This document shows, piece after piece, positions 147 through 46,347 of a stretch of 64,000 nt of DNA (its first letter is position 1; the number at the start of each line of letters is the position of its first letter). Source of the DNA: Escherichia phage Ptacy1532; the sequence record PQ863255.1, one strand, 5' to 3'. The notes below the pieces were generated by a model. That model made no database searches. It saw only the letters and a list, made by a program, of their open reading frames with translations, and was not told the DNA's origin. A program made the translations under genes and the position numbers.

Positions 147-413
147 ATGAATTTAGTATTAGACTTTTTATCAGAGTTGATTCCACGGTTCAGAACGGAG
201 AAATGTGCCTTCATTAAAGAATCCTCTGATAAGTATGGAGATGGTGAGATGATGGAACTCACTTGCATTGGTCGTCTAGTTGACTTGGATGACGATGAAG
301 ATTTTGATGTTACGATAGATGTTAGCAGTTTAGGTTGGTTATTCTTCAGAGCATTCGTATCGTACAAATATGAAACATTTAAAGACTACAGTAAGGGAGA
401 TACAGATGAATAA
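147..413 (+). CDS. hypothetical protein (88 aa)
   Basis: ORF with GAGGAG Shine-Dalgarno 7 nt upstream; stop overlaps next start (ATGAATAA). Confidence 0.5.
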   Translation: MNLVLDFLSELIPRFRTEKCAFIKESSDKYGDGEMMELTCIGRLVDLDDDEDFDVTIDVSSLGWLFFRAFVSYKYETFKDYSKGDTDE

Positions 414-1041
414 TTTAATCAAAGCGATGGACCTTAACGAGTATAATTCACAGCTGTGTCGCTCTGGCTGTAGTTTACAGCATTTAGAAACTATGGGAAA
501 TATTTCAGGATTGGCTGTACAAGATTTATATAGTGGAAGTATTCTTAAACCAACTATTACGGAGAAGAAAGATATGATGAGTTTAGTAGAACAATACCGT
601 GGACTTCAAGTCGGTACTATTGGTGATAAATATGAGAACTACTACAAAGATCGCTCAAAAGTACTTGAAGAAGTTGCACGGGCTAAGCCTTCTACTCTGG
701 AAGTAGTTGAATATGAGTCTACTAAACACGATCACCTCCCTGACTATGCTCGTGCAATGATTGAGATGATTGAAGAAGCTGAATATGAAATGCTCCATGA
801 TTACATTACCTCCAAAGATGAATGGCATCGTGATGTTCGAATCGAAGAGGATGGTACAGAAACAATTACGTGGATTCACAAGAGTGAGCTAGTAGACGAC
901 GCACTGCGAGACTACGAAAAATTTTTGGTCGACGGCTCTTCTATTCTTTTAGAGGAAGAGAAGGGTGCAGAACTTCCGTGGGAAGGTGAGACGATTGCTC
1001 TAGGTAAGATGTTTAACCTGTCCGTTGGTGATTGTAAGTAA
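406..1041 (+). CDS. hypothetical acidic protein (211 aa)
   Basis: ORF track gives 370..1041; ATG at 406 preferred because AAGGGAG SD lies 7 nt upstream; followed by terminator. Confidence 0.5.
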   Translation: MNNLIKAMDLNEYNSQLCRSGCSLQHLETMGNISGLAVQDLYSGSILKPTITEKKDMMSLVEQYRGLQVGTIGDKYENYYKDRSKVLEEVARAKPSTLEVVEYESTKHDHLPDYARAMIEMIEEAEYEMLHDYITSKDEWHRDVRIEEDGTETITWIHKSELVDDALRDYEKFLVDGSSILLEEEKGAELPWEGETIALGKMFNLSVGDCK

Positions 1042-3335: not shown

Positions 3336-5579
3336 ATGGCTAAGCAAAAATATAGTGAAGAGGTGTTGGACGAGTTACGTGTTGACCTTCAACGTCGTTT
3401 TAATTATGCTCAAGGCTACGTAGATATGGCTGTTAAGGGCTATGCTCGTGAAGCTTGGGAATATTTCTATGGTAACTTACCTGCACCAGTAACTGCTGGC
3501 AGCTCTAGTTGGGTAGATCGTACTGTTTGGGAATCTGTTAACGGTACATTGCAAGATATTATTAACGTATTCTGTTCTGGTGATGAAGCAGTTACTTTCG
3601 TAGCTGACAACCAACAGGATTCTGATGCTGCTGATGTAGCAACTAAATTAGTTAACCAAATTCTTCTGCGTGACAATCCGGGATACAACATTATCTCTTC
3701 TGCTGCACAAGAATGTCTGGTTACTCGCAACTCTTTTATCAAATATTATTGGGATGAGCAAACTTCTACTCAAACTGAGGAAGCTGAAGGTGTACCACCG
3801 GAAGCATTGGCTGCATATGTTCAGGGGTTAGAAGCTGGTGGACTCAAGAATCTGGAAATCTTCACTGAAGAAAATGAAGATGGTACAGTAGATGTTAAGG
3901 TTACTTATGAGCAAACTGTCAAACGTGTGAAAGTTGAATATGTTCCTTCAGAGCAAATCTTTGTTGATGAACATGCTACCTCTTTTGCAGATGCACAATA
4001 CTTCTGTCATCGTGTACGTCGTTCTAAAGAAGATCTGGTTGCTATGGGCTTCCCTAAAGATGAGATTGAAGCATTCAACGACTGGACAGACACGATGGAT
4101 ACTACTCAATCTACAGTTGCTTGGTCTCGTACTGACTGGCGTCAGGATATTGATGCTGATATTGGTACAGATACCGAAGATATCGCTTCTATGGTTTGGG
4201 TTTATGAGCACTACATCCGTACTGGTGTTCTAGATAAAAATAAAGAGTCTAAACTCTATCAGGTTATTCAAGCTGGTGAGCATATCCTTCACACTGAAGA
4301 AGTAACTCACATTCCGTTTGTAACCTTCTGCCCGTATCCGATTCCGGGTTCCTTCTATGGTCAATCGGTCTATGACATTACGAAAGATATTCAAGATTTA
4401 CGTACCGCGTTAGTTCGTGGTTATATTGATAACGTCAACAATGCTAACTATGGTCGATACAAAGCTCTTGTTGGTGCATACGATCGTCGCTCTCTGCTTG
4501 ATAACCGTCCCGGTGGAGTGGTTGAAATGGAACGTCAGGACGCTATTGACCTGTTTCCATACCATAACCTACCTCAAGGTATTGACGGCCTCCTAGGTAT
4601 GTCTGAGGAGCTTAAAGAGACACGTACAGGTGTAACTAAACTTGGCATGGGTATCAACCCTGATGTGTTTAAGAATGATAACGCTTATGCAACCGTAGGT
4701 TTGATGATGAATGCTGCACAGAACCGTCTCCGTATGGTATGTCGTAACATTGCTCATAATGGTATGGTTGAATTGATGCGTGGTATTTACAATCTTATCA
4801 GAGAAAATGGTGAAGTTCCTATCGAGGTACAAACCCCTCGTGGTATGATTCAGGTAAATCCAAAACAATTACCAGCTCGTCACAACCTCCAAGTTGTTGT
4901 AGCTATCTCTCCTAATGAGAAAGCAGAACGTGCACAGAAACTGATTAGCTTGAAACAGCTGATTGCAGCAGATGCACAGTTAGCACCTCTCTTTGGTTTG
5001 GAGCAAGACCGTTACATGACTGCACAGATCTTTGAGTTGATGGGTATTAAGGACACACATAAATACCTTCTGCCTCTGGAACAGTATCAGCCTCCAGAAC
5101 CTTCTCCGATGGAAATCCTCCAGCTTGAGATGACTAAAGCACAGGTTGAGAACGTACAGGCTTCTTCTCAGAAGATGATTGCTGATGCATTCGACCAACG
5201 TGAACGTACTACATTCGAACAGCAGAAAGCTGCGGATGAATTAAGTCTGCGTCAGGAAGAGTTGCAGTTCAAGCAAGAAAATGCAGCAGATGCTATGACT
5301 CTGGAAAACCGTAAAGAAGATAACAATGCTACTCTGGAACAAGCTAAACACAAATTAGCTCTTATGCAACAGCAGGTCCGTCAGTATGAATCTGTACTGA
5401 AAGAATTGCAGATGGTTATGTCTCATCAGGTAGACCAAGAGAAGATTGTTCAGCAATCTCGTGTTCAGGATAAAACTTTGGAACTCCAAAAGAAAGAAGC
5501 TAATGTACCTAAGAAAGAGCAACAAGCTACTCTCAAAGATTCACGGATTCCAGGCAAACGTCTTGGAAGTAAAAACTAA
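3336..5579 (+). CDS. portal protein (putative)
   Basis: 747-aa ORF directly downstream of terminase and upstream of scaffold and capsid; C-terminal coiled-coil; assignment by synteny and size. Confidence 0.6.
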   Translation: MAKQKYSEEVLDELRVDLQRRFNYAQGYVDMAVKGYAREAWEYFYGNLPAPVTAGSSSWVDRTVWESVNGTLQDIINVFCSGDEAVTFVADNQQDSDAADVATKLVNQILLRDNPGYNIISSAAQECLVTRNSFIKYYWDEQTSTQTEEAEGVPPEALAAYVQGLEAGGLKNLEIFTEENEDGTVDVKVTYEQTVKRVKVEYVPSEQIFVDEHATSFADAQYFCHRVRRSKEDLVAMGFPKDEIEAFNDWTDTMDTTQSTVAWSRTDWRQDIDADIGTDTEDIASMVWVYEHYIRTGVLDKNKESKLYQVIQAGEHILHTEEVTHIPFVTFCPYPIPGSFYGQSVYDITKDIQDLRTALVRGYIDNVNNANYGRYKALVGAYDRRSLLDNRPGGVVEMERQDAIDLFPYHNLPQGIDGLLGMSEELKETRTGVTKLGMGINPDVFKNDNAYATVGLMMNAAQNRLRMVCRNIAHNGMVELMRGIYNLIRENGEVPIEVQTPRGMIQVNPKQLPARHNLQVVVAISPNEKAERAQKLISLKQLIAADAQLAPLFGLEQDRYMTAQIFELMGIKDTHKYLLPLEQYQPPEPSPMEILQLEMTKAQVENVQASSQKMIADAFDQRERTTFEQQKAADELSLRQEELQFKQENAADAMTLENRKEDNNATLEQAKHKLALMQQQVRQYESVLKELQMVMSHQVDQEKIVQQSRVQDKTLELQKKEANVPKKEQQATLKDSRIPGKRLGSKN

Positions 5580-8592: not shown

Positions 8593-8601
8593 TAATGTAT
8601 A
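8593..8601 (+). promoter_or_regulatory. TAATGTATA motif, candidate phage promoter element
   Basis: Exact 9-mer 33 nt upstream of ATG at 8635 and just after the capsid terminator; same 9-mer recurs at 4 other intergenic sites. Confidence 0.4.
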
Positions 8602-33716: not shown

Positions 33717-34132
33717 ATTTTAATTTCCTTATTTAATTTGAAAGATTGTTGCTCTCTTTGAGCGGTTATGTATAGTATACATTACGCTTATACCGATAAG
33801 AGTACTATATAATATAAGTATCTTTGGTAGTAGATATAACACACTAGTAATGTATATATTGTATAGCTGATAAAGTTATTGCAGGCTTGTATATTGGGCA
33901 ATTCACAGAATCCCTTGCAAGTACCGAAGGGCAGGAGCCACCTGCGAGATAAAAATAGAGAATTAAGGAATCCTTGATTTAGGTTGTAGGGACTCCTAGG
34001 GACTTTGATTCTCTATTTAAAAGAATATTAATTACTTATTACCTAAATAATTAACTAACTTACTTAAACCAAATTCAAGAATAATAGATAAAAAGATTAT
34101 TCCTAAGAAAGCTAAAAAGTAAAGGATATAAG
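33717..34132. promoter_or_regulatory. AT-rich intergenic region with promoter-like motifs, palindromes and direct repeats
   Basis: 416 bp non-coding; TAATGTATA on both strands (33848-33856 plus, 33776-33784 minus); palindromes GTATAC, AGTACT, CTTGCAAG; hairpin GCAGG-AGCCA-CCTGC; TAGGGACT direct repeat. Confidence 0.4.
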
Positions 34133-42958: not shown

Positions 42959-43615
42959 TTAAATCTCCAATGTTTTCTTCAGAGCTGCCCACGAGATTGG
43001 GTAGATCTTAGTCATCTCTTCGTCTACAGATTTAGCAAACACTCGAACTTCATATTGAGCGTGAGAGGAGAGTCGCTGACGACACAACTCAAACCATCCA
43101 TACAAAGAACCAGTCCACACCCACTCAGTGATCATCCCCTGAGGAAGAACAAATCGAGCTTGCTCTGGTGCAATAAATTCAATCAACTTGTCATATGCTG
43201 CTAGAGAAGCTTCATATGCATCATTAATCAGCATTAATGCTTCAGCTCGTTCTCCGTCGATGAGTTGAATCCCTGAACCTGCATGGAGGTCCGAAGGTCT
43301 CGCAAAAATCTCTTTAGGGATGAAGACTTCAACTGCTCCATCTTTATACCGCCGGGACATTTCGTTCCACGAGAATCCAACCTGATGCTTCTGTAGTTGA
43401 CGAGCGATTGCAATTGGAGCCTTACAACGAAAGGACACTTGTGGGTGACGGAACGGAGTGCAGTGTTTCTCTCTAGCCAAGAAATTAATCAACCGAGTGT
43501 CACGATCGTTCAAATCACCCTCTCGTACAACACCAAAAGAAACTCTTGCAGCATTAACAACAGTTTTATCACTGCCCATAGCCTCAATCAATGTTGCTTG
43601 CAATTGTTCATTCAT
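42959..43615 (-). CDS. thyX: flavin-dependent thymidylate synthase (ThyX-like)
   Basis: 218 aa; overall ThyX-like pattern with HCTPFRH and SRRY segments; call from motif resemblance only. Confidence 0.6.
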   Translation of the reverse strand: MNEQLQATLIEAMGSDKTVVNAARVSFGVVREGDLNDRDTRLINFLAREKHCTPFRHPQVSFRCKAPIAIARQLQKHQVGFSWNEMSRRYKDGAVEVFIPKEIFARPSDLHAGSGIQLIDGERAEALMLINDAYEASLAAYDKLIEFIAPEQARFVLPQGMITEWVWTGSLYGWFELCRQRLSSHAQYEVRVFAKSVDEEMTKIYPISWAALKKTLEI

Positions 43616-44087
43616 ACTTCAACTTCTCCTTGTTATAAGCAATCTCTGCTTCCTCTGGAGTATGGAAAGTTCCTAGATGCTTAGTCTTTCCATTAACTCC
43701 GATGATAGCTCTGAATTTTGTACCACTAGCCGTCTCTCTGATGTAAACACCCATTGGAAGTTTTCCAGCTTTTCCGGCTCTGTTGTATTGTTTTCTGTTA
43801 TGACAGTTTGTAGATGGGTCAACATCTCTTAGATTTTTAAGAGAGTCATCCAGTTTAATCTGGTTGATATGATCAATCTCAAACTCAGGCATCTTTCCAT
43901 AAGAGAAAAACCAAGCTAATCGACATGCTCTGTAAGATTTCCCTTCATAATAGATATACCTGTAACCTAATGTTGAGATACACCCAGCAATGTTCCCTGA
44001 TATTCTCCGACCTTTAGTATTCTTCCACCTAAAGACCCCAGTATCAGGGTCATATGCTAGGTCATCTTTTATTTTATCAGTTAACAC
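43608..44087 (-). CDS. HNH homing endonuclease with AP2-like domain
   Basis: 159 aa; EIDHINQIKLDDSLKNLR HNH motif; C-terminal GVY..ASGTKFRA AP2-like segment. Confidence 0.7.
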   Translation of the reverse strand: MLTDKIKDDLAYDPDTGVFRWKNTKGRRISGNIAGCISTLGYRYIYYEGKSYRACRLAWFFSYGKMPEFEIDHINQIKLDDSLKNLRDVDPSTNCHNRKQYNRAGKAGKLPMGVYIRETASGTKFRAIIGVNGKTKHLGTFHTPEEAEIAYNKEKLKYE

Positions 44088-44352
44088 CTAAAGCTGTGTC
44101 CAAAAATGCTTTCAGGTTTGCTTCAGTCTGCATACCAGAGAGGCTGTAATGTGCACCGCTGTTACGGTCAGGTACAACGAAAGCAGGGATGCTTCGTACA
44201 CCATACTTAACAGCTTGCTCACGACCATCACCTTCAAGGATGTTAATCTCTTCCACTTCTACATCAAACTCCTTAACAACCTTCTCAAAGGTAGGAGCCA
44301 TTGCTTTACATGGAGCACATTGATCACTATAAAACTTAATTACTTTAGACAT
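44077..44352 (-). CDS. thioredoxin-fold protein
   Basis: ORF track 44077..44358 (TTG); ATG 44352 preferred (GAGGA SD); CAPC active-site motif and cis-Pro region VRSIPAFVV. Confidence 0.65.
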   Translation of the reverse strand: MSKVIKFYSDQCAPCKAMAPTFEKVVKEFDVEVEEINILEGDGREQAVKYGVRSIPAFVVPDRNSGAHYSLSGMQTEANLKAFLDTALGVN

Positions 44353-44522
44353 TAACAATCCTCGTTAACAAATTCTTTAAGGTGGCGTTCTGTGGTAGGT
44401 ATTACGATGTAATCTTTATACCCTTGAGCTTTGGCTAAATCCTCAGCTATCTTTTTAGTAGCCCCCAATGCCATCACACACTGACAAACAATCACCGTGT
44501 GAGCTTTGTATTCGTCCTTCAT
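44352..44522 (-). CDS. hypothetical small protein (56 aa)
   Basis: Below ORF-track cutoff; stop overlaps thioredoxin start (TAATG); contains CQC. Confidence 0.25.
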   Translation of the reverse strand: MKDEYKAHTVIVCQCVMALGATKKIAEDLAKAQGYKDYIVIPTTERHLKEFVNEDC

Positions 44523-44772
44523 TTAAGAACCTTATGCAGTCAGGAGGTGAAGCAGGAATGGGATAACAACAGCTACGATAACCATGATGGTTGATGCTGT
44601 TTGAATCTCACCTTTCTTGTCAGGGGTTTCTTCGATAAGCTTACCAGAAGCCCAATAAATACCACCACCGATAAAGATAGCCCAAATACCCCATACGATT
44701 GCTGATAACATATATCTATATCCTTATAAATAAGTTCGCCCCACCTCGGGTTAGGAGACAGGGCGGAGGTTT

Positions 44773-45384
44773 TTAGTAAGACACATCACCACTTGAGTGG
44801 GACATGTTGCTCTTGACGAAGTAGCAATACTTGCCAAGACCTTCATTAATTTCTTGAAGCATACTCTGGTCAACTGGATAAGTGGCTAAATCGCCATCAA
44901 ACTCATCCATCTTCTCAATAATACACATCAAGGTCATGCACATATCAGAGAGCATACCGTCCATATCCAGATCAGCATTACCCTCTGAGAACCAAGCATG
45001 GGAGAGGTAGTTAGCTGCTGTAGCATCCACCTTAACACAGTGGTATCGCATACGCTCAGCAATACGATCTCCTACTTGTCGTGCGTAATCTTCCAGCTCA
45101 TCAAACATACCATGAACACCCTGAAATCCTGCACCAGAGACATTCCAGTGGTAGTTCTTAGCTTTGATATGCAAGAGTTCCATGTTAGCTTGTAAGCAGC
45201 TTAGGATGTGTTCTAGGCTGTTTCCACTAATCATACCCTGCATAGTTTCAAGGCGAGAGATTGAAAGCTCAGACCGGTCTAACATGTTATATTCTGCACG
45301 ACCAATCTCAGGTAAATCAAAGACATTCTTATGCATTTGGGTTTTCTCCATCAAGTTCAACTGAGTTAGCAACGTTACGTGCAA
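44773..45384 (-). CDS. Dps/ferritin-like protein (putative)
   Basis: 203 aa; KNYHWNVSGAGFQGVHGMFDELEDYARQVGDRIAERM fits the Dps pattern HWN..G..F...H...E.......D.IAER. Confidence 0.45.
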   Translation of the reverse strand: MHVTLLTQLNLMEKTQMHKNVFDLPEIGRAEYNMLDRSELSISRLETMQGMISGNSLEHILSCLQANMELLHIKAKNYHWNVSGAGFQGVHGMFDELEDYARQVGDRIAERMRYHCVKVDATAANYLSHAWFSEGNADLDMDGMLSDMCMTLMCIIEKMDEFDGDLATYPVDQSMLQEINEGLGKYCYFVKSNMSHSSGDVSY

Positions 45385-45658
45385 TATTATCCATTACCTG
45401 CTGGGTAATTACGATGCAGTTCTGTGGGTCTACTGACTTAGAACGCCCCATTTCAGGGTCATACACCTTAACTCGCTTAGCAGTTGAACCTGTAACCTGA
45501 AGAACCTTCAACAGATATCCCTGATTACCAATAGACCAAGCAACAACATCACGATTCTTGATAAAGCGACCAAGCATATCACGATGATAAAACTGTTGCA
45601 TCACCTTGGATTTTGTAATCTCTTCAGTGGGCGGGGCCACTTTACTCAAATCTAACAT
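45329..45658 (-). CDS. hypothetical protein (109 aa)
   Basis: ORF; AAATGTATAT promoter-like variant 40 nt upstream. Confidence 0.4.
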   Translation of the reverse strand: MLDLSKVAPPTEEITKSKVMQQFYHRDMLGRFIKNRDVVAWSIGNQGYLLKVLQVTGSTAKRVKVYDPEMGRSKSVDPQNCIVITQQVMDNIARNVANSVELDGENPNA

Positions 45659-45698: not shown

Positions 45699-45707
45699 TA
45701 TACATTT
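45699..45707 (-). promoter_or_regulatory. AAATGTATA motif variant, candidate promoter element
   Basis: One mismatch to TAATGTATA; intergenic, upstream of 45329..45658. Confidence 0.3.
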
Positions 45708-45731: not shown

Positions 45732-45941
45732 TCAGTAATAAATTACTTTAGACATAAAAGAACCCGAGCTAGGGTCTTCGTACCAGCGATGAATGTCAGC
45801 ACTTTTAACAGTTCCTATTAGAGCTTTCATGTTCTTTTTAGCGACACGAGCCTCTTTGCGAGTGTTAAACAGTTTGATATTATCTTTACCTAAGTGTTGT
45901 TTCTGTTCCCAAACAACACGAACAGCCCACATCTTTTTCAT
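45732..45941 (-). CDS. small basic protein, tandem paralog 3 of 3
   Basis: 69 aa; W.VRV...F.TR.EAR..KK pattern and C-terminal YY shared with two upstream genes. Confidence 0.45.
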   Translation of the reverse strand: MKKMWAVRVVWEQKQHLGKDNIKLFNTRKEARVAKKNMKALIGTVKSADIHRWYEDPSSGSFMSKVIYY

Positions 45942-46150
45942 TAGTAATGTACCTTTCCGCTGATATAAATACGACCAGAGGAATACTCCTTGGCCTTATG
46001 GATACTAATGCTCTTAGTTAAGTCCATATTGAACATAGACTTTTTAAAATCTCGAGCTTGTTGACGGGTGGGCAGTGCAGTCATAGTCATACCACCTGAT
46101 GCCCACTTAATCTTCGCTAACCAGAACTGTCTCATAGTGATTGGTCTCAT
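45941..46150 (-). CDS. small basic protein, tandem paralog 2 of 3
   Basis: 69 aa; same family; 1-nt start/stop overlaps. Confidence 0.45.
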   Translation of the reverse strand: MRPITMRQFWLAKIKWASGGMTMTALPTRQQARDFKKSMFNMDLTKSISIHKAKEYSSGRIYISGKVHY

Positions 46151-46347
46151 TAATAATAAACCTTGCTGTTGGCAAAAAGAGCACCTTCGTTATTCACAAT
46201 AGCTTTTCCTATTGTAATCTTACCTGACAGACCTATCCCCTTAAAAATCTTCTTAATTCGACGGGCGTGCTCTCGAGTATTAACAAAATCTACAGATTTT
46301 ATATCACCTGTCTTGTTATCATGTACACGAACAATCCACTTTTTCAT
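46150..46347 (-). CDS. small basic protein, tandem paralog 1 of 3
   Basis: 65 aa; MKKWIVRV...TREHARRIKK...KVYY. Confidence 0.45.
   Translation of the reverse strand: MKKWIVRVHDNKTGDIKSVDFVNTREHARRIKKIFKGIGLSGKITIGKAIVNNEGALFANSKVYY

Follow-up and report, generated by a model that had tools for sequence, protein, structure and literature searches.

A Dps-family gene of Escherichia phage Ptacy1532, orthologous to phiEco32 gp67, with a probable role as an iron and peroxide sink

We conclude that the window, meaning the whole 64,000-nucleotide stretch of Escherichia phage Ptacy1532 that was analyzed (record PQ863255.1), carries a Dps-family gene on its minus strand. The best explanation of this gene, and one that we consider likely, is that it encodes a catalytically competent mini-ferritin that protects the replicating phage DNA and the nucleotide machinery. 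By analogy with other Dps proteins, twelve subunits would assemble into a hollow shell, Fe2+ would be oxidized at sites between subunits with H2O2 as the preferred oxidant, and Fe3+ would be kept as a mineral core, so that both Fenton reagents are removed. We infer a protective role during infection, in which the protein would be an Fe2+ and peroxide sink during replication of the phage genome, shielding the DNA and the nucleotide-metabolism machinery from iron/peroxide damage. The host, meanwhile, is perhaps unable to mount a dps/OxyR response of its own.

As a discovery, the gene has little weight. It is already known as the orthologue of phiEco32 gp67 and its identification as Dps is correct and ordinary: the RefSeq entry for phi32_67 (YP_001671812.1) reads "DNA binding protein; member of the Dps family," and the papers on SU10 and Privateer also note the gene. 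The literature that we searched held no report of a phage Dps examined by biochemistry or genetics. The new points of the present analysis are modest and comprise a corrected start codon, the division into two tail subfamilies with an argument against the "DNA-binding" label, and, as a detail of the locus, a gp68-Dps pair (Dps being the second cistron) with promoter P68 upstream and a hairpin after it. The practical uses are that a mis-annotation as "integrase" is flagged and that the "DNA-binding protein" label is argued against for the Kuravirus subfamily. If the proposed role is true, a lytic phage that brings its own iron/peroxide sink while it shuts off host sigma70 would be a defined case of viral oxidative-stress management. 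Coordinates of the features discussed are collected in Table 1.

Table 1. Features of the Dps locus in the window (positions count from the first nucleotide of the window)
Feature	Position	Strand	Basis or remark
Dps-family gene, phiEco32 gp67 orthologue	44773..45336	-	ORF, PF00210, PHROG 3636, PDB Dps chains, identity to phi32_67
Ferroxidase-center segment K60-M96 with H63, W64, H75, D79, D90 and E94	45049..45159	-	Alignment with E. coli and Listeria Dps
N-terminal extension, residues 1-40, non-basic	45217..45336	-	Charge, pI, alignment of extensions, AlphaFold2
Shine-Dalgarno GGAG	45346..45349	-	Read from the sequence
Upstream part of the maximal ORF (from TTG), probably not part of Dps	45337..45384	-	Homologue starts, phiEco32 annotation; contains GGAG
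gp68 homologue, 109 aa, phrog_10984 (no known function)	45329..45658	-	Overlaps Dps by 8 nt (stop with start)
P68 element aAATGTATA (AAATGTATA), gp36 (phage sigma) promoter	45699..45707	-	Some 40 nt before the ATG of gp68
Terminator-like hairpin, 11-bp stem	44737..44765	-	Scan; 8 nt past the Dps stop

Gene call, family membership and ferroxidase site

An earlier note, made from the letters of the sequence, had assigned a Dps/ferritin-like protein to positions 44773 to 45384. That frame is real and codes for the Dps protein. It is an uninterrupted minus-strand ORF of 203 amino acids from a TTG at 45384, and its translation contains the quoted peptide KNYHWNVSGAGFQGVHGMFDELEDYARQVGDRIAERM at 45049-45159 (minus strand). 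The 5' end did not stand, as these coordinates are those of the longest ORF. The true start is almost certainly the ATG at 45336, rather than the TTG, because a GGAG lies 9 nt upstream of it, phi32_67 of phiEco32 is annotated from the same start codon, and the N termini of the homologues agree, nearly all of those listed beginning with MH(K/N)N. Read from this ATG, the product has 187 residues (21.2 kDa, pI 4.73) and begins with MHKNVF. The part of the frame upstream of the ATG is probably not translated as part of Dps, and it lies within the gp68 coding region.

The Pfam, PHROG, PDB sequence and fold evidence all point to the Dps branch of the ferritin-like superfamily, and the identity proposed in the earlier note is upheld. 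Pfam assigns the protein to one family, Ferritin (PF00210), with a score of 30.9 bits that exceeds the gathering cut-off of 24.5, and all 121 relatives match the same family. The protein aligns with positions 2-149 of the 149 in PHROG 3636 (phrog_3636, phage "DNA binding protein"; E 3.1e-55, 187 bits). When it was compared with the PDB by phmmer, more than 30 solved Dps chains were matched, the best being Mycobacterium smegmatis Dps2 (E of about 3e-9), which aligned across the whole core; the matches are almost exclusively Dps proteins. Nothing outside the superfamily scores significantly, so the result that the earlier note had named as refuting, best profile hits outside it, did not occur. 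The NCBIfam matches, too, are all Dps/DpsA equivalogs, and all are below threshold: 34.3 versus 114 bits for Dps (NF006975, PRK09448), and 31.9 versus 170 and 17.4 versus 300 bits for the DpsA equivalogs NF041388 and NF052461, respectively. The Dps score is far under the equivalog cut-off, and the protein is therefore a divergent family member. It belongs to the Dps family without being an equivalog of these cellular Dps and DpsA proteins.

The AlphaFold2 model of the monomer, built on 121 sequences, has a mean pLDDT of 86, with block means of at least 89 across residues 41-180. Its helices span residues 41-65, 71-98, 107-112 (BC), 125-150 and 154-177, a predicted subunit fold of four-helix bundle plus short BC helix in the Dps topology. 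In a Foldseek search of the PDB, all of the top 50 matches were Dps proteins (probability 1.0, target TM-scores of 0.75-0.91). Cellular Dps proteins (M. smegmatis Dps2, Bacillus anthracis Dlp-2, Bacillus subtilis MrgA, Listeria and E. coli Dps) have the same bundle and BC helix, and most Foldseek matches superimpose on the model with an rmsd of 1.1-2.4 Å over about 135-143 residues. They also have the identical ligand pattern, H-x11-H-x3-D-x10-D-x3-E plus Trp, but share only 18-27% identity with the window protein.

The ferroxidase-site pattern that the earlier note had seen is no chance match. Its His/His/Asp/Asp/Glu set aligns residue for residue with the sites of two reference proteins. H63, W64, H75, D79, D90 and E94 correspond to H51, W52, H63, D67, D78 and E82 of E. 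coli Dps and to H31, W32, H43, D47, D58 and E62 of Listeria Dps; with 167 and 156 residues, the two reference sequences (E. coli and Listeria innocua) are as long as PDB chains 1dps and 1qgh, respectively. In solved Dps proteins, the site is formed by the equivalents of H63 and H75 (with D79) from one subunit and those of D90 and E94 from its two-fold partner. The note had suggested checking the conservation of these ligands. In all 121 relatives, down to identities of about 20%, H63, H75, D90 and E94 are unchanged; the D79 position is Asp or Glu in 118 of the 121, and W64 is kept in 116. This conservation down to such low identity argues that the ferroxidase chemistry is under selection.

The aspartates that line the three-fold iron-entry pore in Listeria and E. 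coli Dps seem not to be retained, by a sequence alignment that is unreliable in this loop: D121, D126 and D130 of the Listeria protein fall on D149, P154 and S158. D156 is conserved close to these positions, and the C-D turn is acidic (EKMDEFDGD). Each subunit has 5 Cys (C47, C100, C132, C137 and C171) and 15 Met, compared with 0 and 4, respectively, for E. coli Dps. Kuravirus-type Dps proteins are unusually rich in Cys, with 5-10 per subunit and several of the positions conserved in the clade. A thioredoxin gene lies three genes downstream of the Cys-rich Dps.

The N-terminal extension and the DNA-binding label

A further difference from cellular Dps is the 40-residue non-basic N-terminal extension, which has conserved motifs of its own. 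Its net charge is -2, and the pI of the first 47 residues is 5.05. Alignment of the extensions brings out the motifs MHNN[VP]FDLP and SxxRL[ED]xM, and AlphaFold2 places a low-confidence helix at residues 18-37. The C terminus, KSNMSHSSGDVSY, is non-basic as well, so that a Lys/Arg-rich mobile tail of the E. coli Dps type is absent at either terminus. Where E. coli Dps has the tail lysines K5, K8 and K10, the window protein has Y, L and R.

In the 121-sequence alignment, phage Dps proteins split cleanly into two groups by tail. Members of the Kuravirus-like group have 169-195 residues and an N-extension of 24-48 residues with a net charge of -2 to +1. Those of the second group, from Grimontviridae, Lahexavirus and related metagenomic sequences, mostly have 137-157 residues, and most of their tails are 9-18 residues long with a net charge of +2 to +5; in the short-tailed Grimontviridae and Lahexavirus relatives, the pI of the first 20 residues is 8.3-11.8. 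On this alignment the window protein is a member of the Kuravirus-like, long-extension group. The short-tailed proteins of Privateer/3H10_20, GAP52, SE131 and LAh_9 (146-156 aa, 29-41% identity) share its ligands, its gene module and a gp68-like partner, but have basic N-tails, again with a net charge of +2 to +5, in place of the long non-basic extension. Their loci often adjoin anaerobic ribonucleotide reductase genes, which the window is without.

These tails bear on a different function, in which a DNA-binding and -compacting dodecamer would coat phage or host DNA, like the Dps of stationary-phase E. coli, with iron chemistry secondary. Many relatives are annotated as "DNA binding protein," the basic tails of the Grimontviridae/Lahexavirus relatives resemble that of E. 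coli Dps, and the Privateer homologue was found by mass spectrometry (MS) in CsCl-purified virions (PMC7881722), all of which would suit such a coat. However, the Kuravirus protein is acidic, with a negatively charged extension, a non-basic C terminus and no counterparts of the E. coli tail lysines, and strict conservation of the ferroxidase ligands would be unexpected if DNA coating were its sole function. Dps proteins that have no mobile basic tail, such as those of Listeria and Agrobacterium tumefaciens, are not known to bind DNA. We consider it unlikely that the window protein is chiefly a DNA coat. The "DNA-binding protein" label is doubtful for the Kuravirus subfamily, because a non-basic extension replaces the basic tail and the pI is 4.7. 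For the same reasons, the acidic pI and the non-basic extension, Kuravirus Dps probably acts as an iron and peroxide sink and not as a DNA coat. The earlier note had offered iron or oxidative-stress handling, or DNA protection, during infection; among these roles, the Kuravirus form agrees better with the handling of iron and peroxide than with direct binding to DNA.

The presence of homologues in phage preparations could also indicate that Dps is packaged in the virion and delivered with the genome, acting as soon as infection begins or within the prolate head. In Privateer, MS showed the homologue in particles from CsCl step and equilibrium gradients, and its function was called unverified (PMC7881722, 2021). 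In SU10, the orthologue was detected by MS in a lysate concentrate (6 peptides, 35.8% coverage), but this sample had been concentrated only with PEG, thioredoxin and DNA polymerase were present in it as well, and its authors caution that non-structural proteins may be carried over (PMC4281155). The report of the SU10 virion structure gives gp20-24 as the head-borne ejection proteins (major gel bands) and leaves Dps unmentioned (PMC9509320). The gene also sits in the middle replication cluster, not in the late cluster. An iron-loaded cage, moreover, could co-band with phage in CsCl. Packaging thus seems to us very improbable, and we keep to a sink that works inside the infected cell during replication.

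Two further readings of the protein were rejected. Many Kuravirus records (e.g., NC_070993.1, NC_070986.1 and NC_070983.1; protein P0005) label the Dps orthologue "integrase." It has a ferritin-like domain only and no integrase domain, and the label is a propagated annotation error. The extension was also considered as a targeting peptide common with the ORF at 370-1041 (plus strand); the 48% identity over 33 residues is a chance resemblance, and a profile of 27 extensions gave an E value of 17. This 223-residue ORF of the late region matches phrog_12176, whose "ABC transporter" label looks implausible for its size and position.

The gp68-Dps pair and its locus

Cellular dps is driven by OxyR or sigmaS, and induction of dps in the host depends on OxyR; the window gene lies downstream of a phage-sigma promoter instead. 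The gp68-Dps pair would be expressed from the gp36 promoter P68, with Dps as the second cistron. The window has an exact match to AATGTATA in a region 98% identical to phiEco32. The same element is given as P68 in Table S3 of PMC8948821, where six gp36-dependent promoters, P68 among them, were found experimentally in phiEco32, with transcription starting 6-8 bp downstream of the element. Because gp79 inhibits sigma70 transcription (PMC8948821), the host may fail to induce its dps/OxyR response. A sigma70 promoter had been placed upstream of gp68 in SU10 (PMC4281155), but a consensus scan found none there on the minus strand of the window, and the gp36-type element stands there instead.

The gp36 promoter core, TAATGTAT, occurs 8 times in the window, against 2.5 expected by chance. 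Core sites lie at 8593, 20993, 23979, 24733, 33777, 33848, 37933 and 40192, plus 45699. Only some of them match the six phiEco32 promoters; among the others is a convergent pair at 33777 (minus) and 33848 (plus).

At the other end of the pair, the hairpin past the Dps stop folds as RNA with -15.9 kcal/mol and a z-score of -1.8, only marginally above shuffled sequence. Its T-run is weak (AACTTATTTA), and it is conserved in phiEco32.

The AlphaFold2 model of gp68, of moderate confidence (pLDDT 68.5), consists of a small beta-barrel and one helix. The protein has no match in Pfam or PADLOC, and Foldseek returned no significant structural match from the PDB, only generic SH3/Tudor/KOW-like barrels with E values of 0.014 or worse. 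An exhaustive profile search of 1.84 billion proteins recovered 32 representatives of the family, all of them short stand-alone proteins with no Pfam domains. A role in defense or counter-defense was considered and rejected, as neither Dps nor gp68 nor either of the two small ORFs downstream gave a match in PADLOC.

All ten related loci have a gp68 homologue upstream of Dps in the same orientation, and in seven it directly adjoins the start of Dps. The ten loci come from phiEco32, EcP-vB, SE131, Proteus phage 3H10_20, GAP52, LAh_9 and four phage-sized metagenomic contigs (62-101 kb). Kuravirus Dps, with its conserved non-basic extension, and the small beta-barrel protein might work together as a phage-specific two-component unit distinct from cellular Dps, in which gp68 would tether the iron cage to phage DNA or the replisome, or gate the release of iron. 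The observation that points this way is the conserved adjacency of the two genes by itself, and we regard such a unit as speculative and improbable.

The pair belongs to a middle-gene cluster that also includes thioredoxin, ThyX, dCTP deaminase and replication genes; the middle-class assignment, like the status of P68, is taken from PMC8948821 and PMC4281155. Downstream, Dps is followed by ORFs of 59 and 56 aa and then by the genes for thioredoxin, an HNH endonuclease and ThyX. The 59-aa product is gp66-like (phrog_9296, no known function), hydrophobic and probably membrane-spanning. Upstream of gp68 there are three tandem phrog_4939 paralogues, followed by dCTP deaminase. These paralogues (45732-45941, 45941-46150 and 46150-46347, minus strand) have no known function, encode 65-69 residues ending in KV[IHY]Y and correspond to phiEco32 gp69-71.

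Over the region, about 100 genomes of Escherichia and Shigella phages from the phiEco32 group (genus Kuravirus, subfamily Gordonclarkvirinae) share 93-97% DNA identity with Ptacy1532, and the window is from a Kuravirus, a phiEco32-like podophage of E. coli. The gp67 of phiEco32 is like the window protein, with 97.9% amino acid identity, 187 residues and the same start, and the genes differ by point substitutions only. The neighbors are also the same, with gp68 upstream and gp66, thioredoxin and ThyX downstream; the window differs in having the 56-aa ORF and the HNH endonuclease, both missing from phiEco32. The former (44352-44522, minus strand; phrog_19504, no known function) lies between the gp66-like gene and thioredoxin, in what is a variable slot. 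The latter is an HNH_3/AP2-type homing endonuclease (43608-44087, minus strand; phrog_99, E 8e-54) between thioredoxin and ThyX, which are adjacent in phiEco32. This insertion occurs in some Kuraviruses only, and many of the DNA matches begin just beyond it.

Conserved context and occurrence in phages

Dps lies in a nucleotide-metabolism module at all ten related loci, with neighbors drawn from dCTP deaminase, thioredoxin, ThyX and PhoH. Eight of these loci are from other genera, and there Dps is often beside NrdD, NrdG or ATP-cone genes. Such a setting would suit a protein that stores iron for, or donates it to, phage or host enzymes that need iron to make nucleotides, such as the Fe-S activase of class III ribonucleotide reductase: the Dps gene directly abuts NrdD, NrdG or ATP-cone genes in relatives, and in the window and at the ten loci the module has thioredoxin, dCTP deaminase and/or ThyX nearby. 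Yet tblastn found no match to NrdD, NrdG or ATP-cone genes in the 64-kb window, where the Dps site is nevertheless intact, and a link to ribonucleotide reductase was rejected for Ptacy1532. None of ThyX, dCTP deaminase and thioredoxin is known as an iron enzyme. Nor was a Bfd-like ferredoxin or another iron-release partner found, gp68 having no recognizable domain. We judge a role as iron donor quite unlikely, and protection of the DNA and nucleotide machinery by an iron and peroxide sink remains our preferred explanation.

A stand-alone ATP-cone protein of 85-90 residues is encoded directly downstream of Dps in LAh_9 (3429-3701 of locus L006). The same gene follows Dps in two metagenomic relatives (4461-4733 of L008 and 4510-4767 of L009), and the Kuravirus window is without it.

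The earlier note had called Dps-like genes uncommon in phages. This holds overall, at well under 1% of records: a tblastn search with the window protein matched 138 of 50,697 phage records. It does not hold within the C3 podophages, as the gene is present in every one compared, and several lineages carry it. In SU10 the orthologue (CDS67) was described as a middle gene with a DPS domain, present in all five C3 podophages then known (PMC4281155, 2014), and phi32_67 is among the genes common to all eight phiEco32-like phages in Table S2 of PMC8948821. Nearly all of the 138 matches are to prolate podophages of Escherichia, Shigella, Salmonella, Cronobacter, Proteus and Aeromonas; of other phage lineages, this search reached only a few Streptomyces and Synechococcus phages. 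With Listeria Dps as the query, 171 phage records were matched, partly overlapping the 138 and mostly from Streptomyces, Lactobacillus, Campylobacter and Clostridium phages. The Dps-like genes of these phages and of the gut "Gratiaviridae" are phage-borne like that of the window, in other groups and hosts. For the "Gratiaviridae," whose Dps genes were described by Benler et al., a role in oxidative stress was proposed (PMC8008677).
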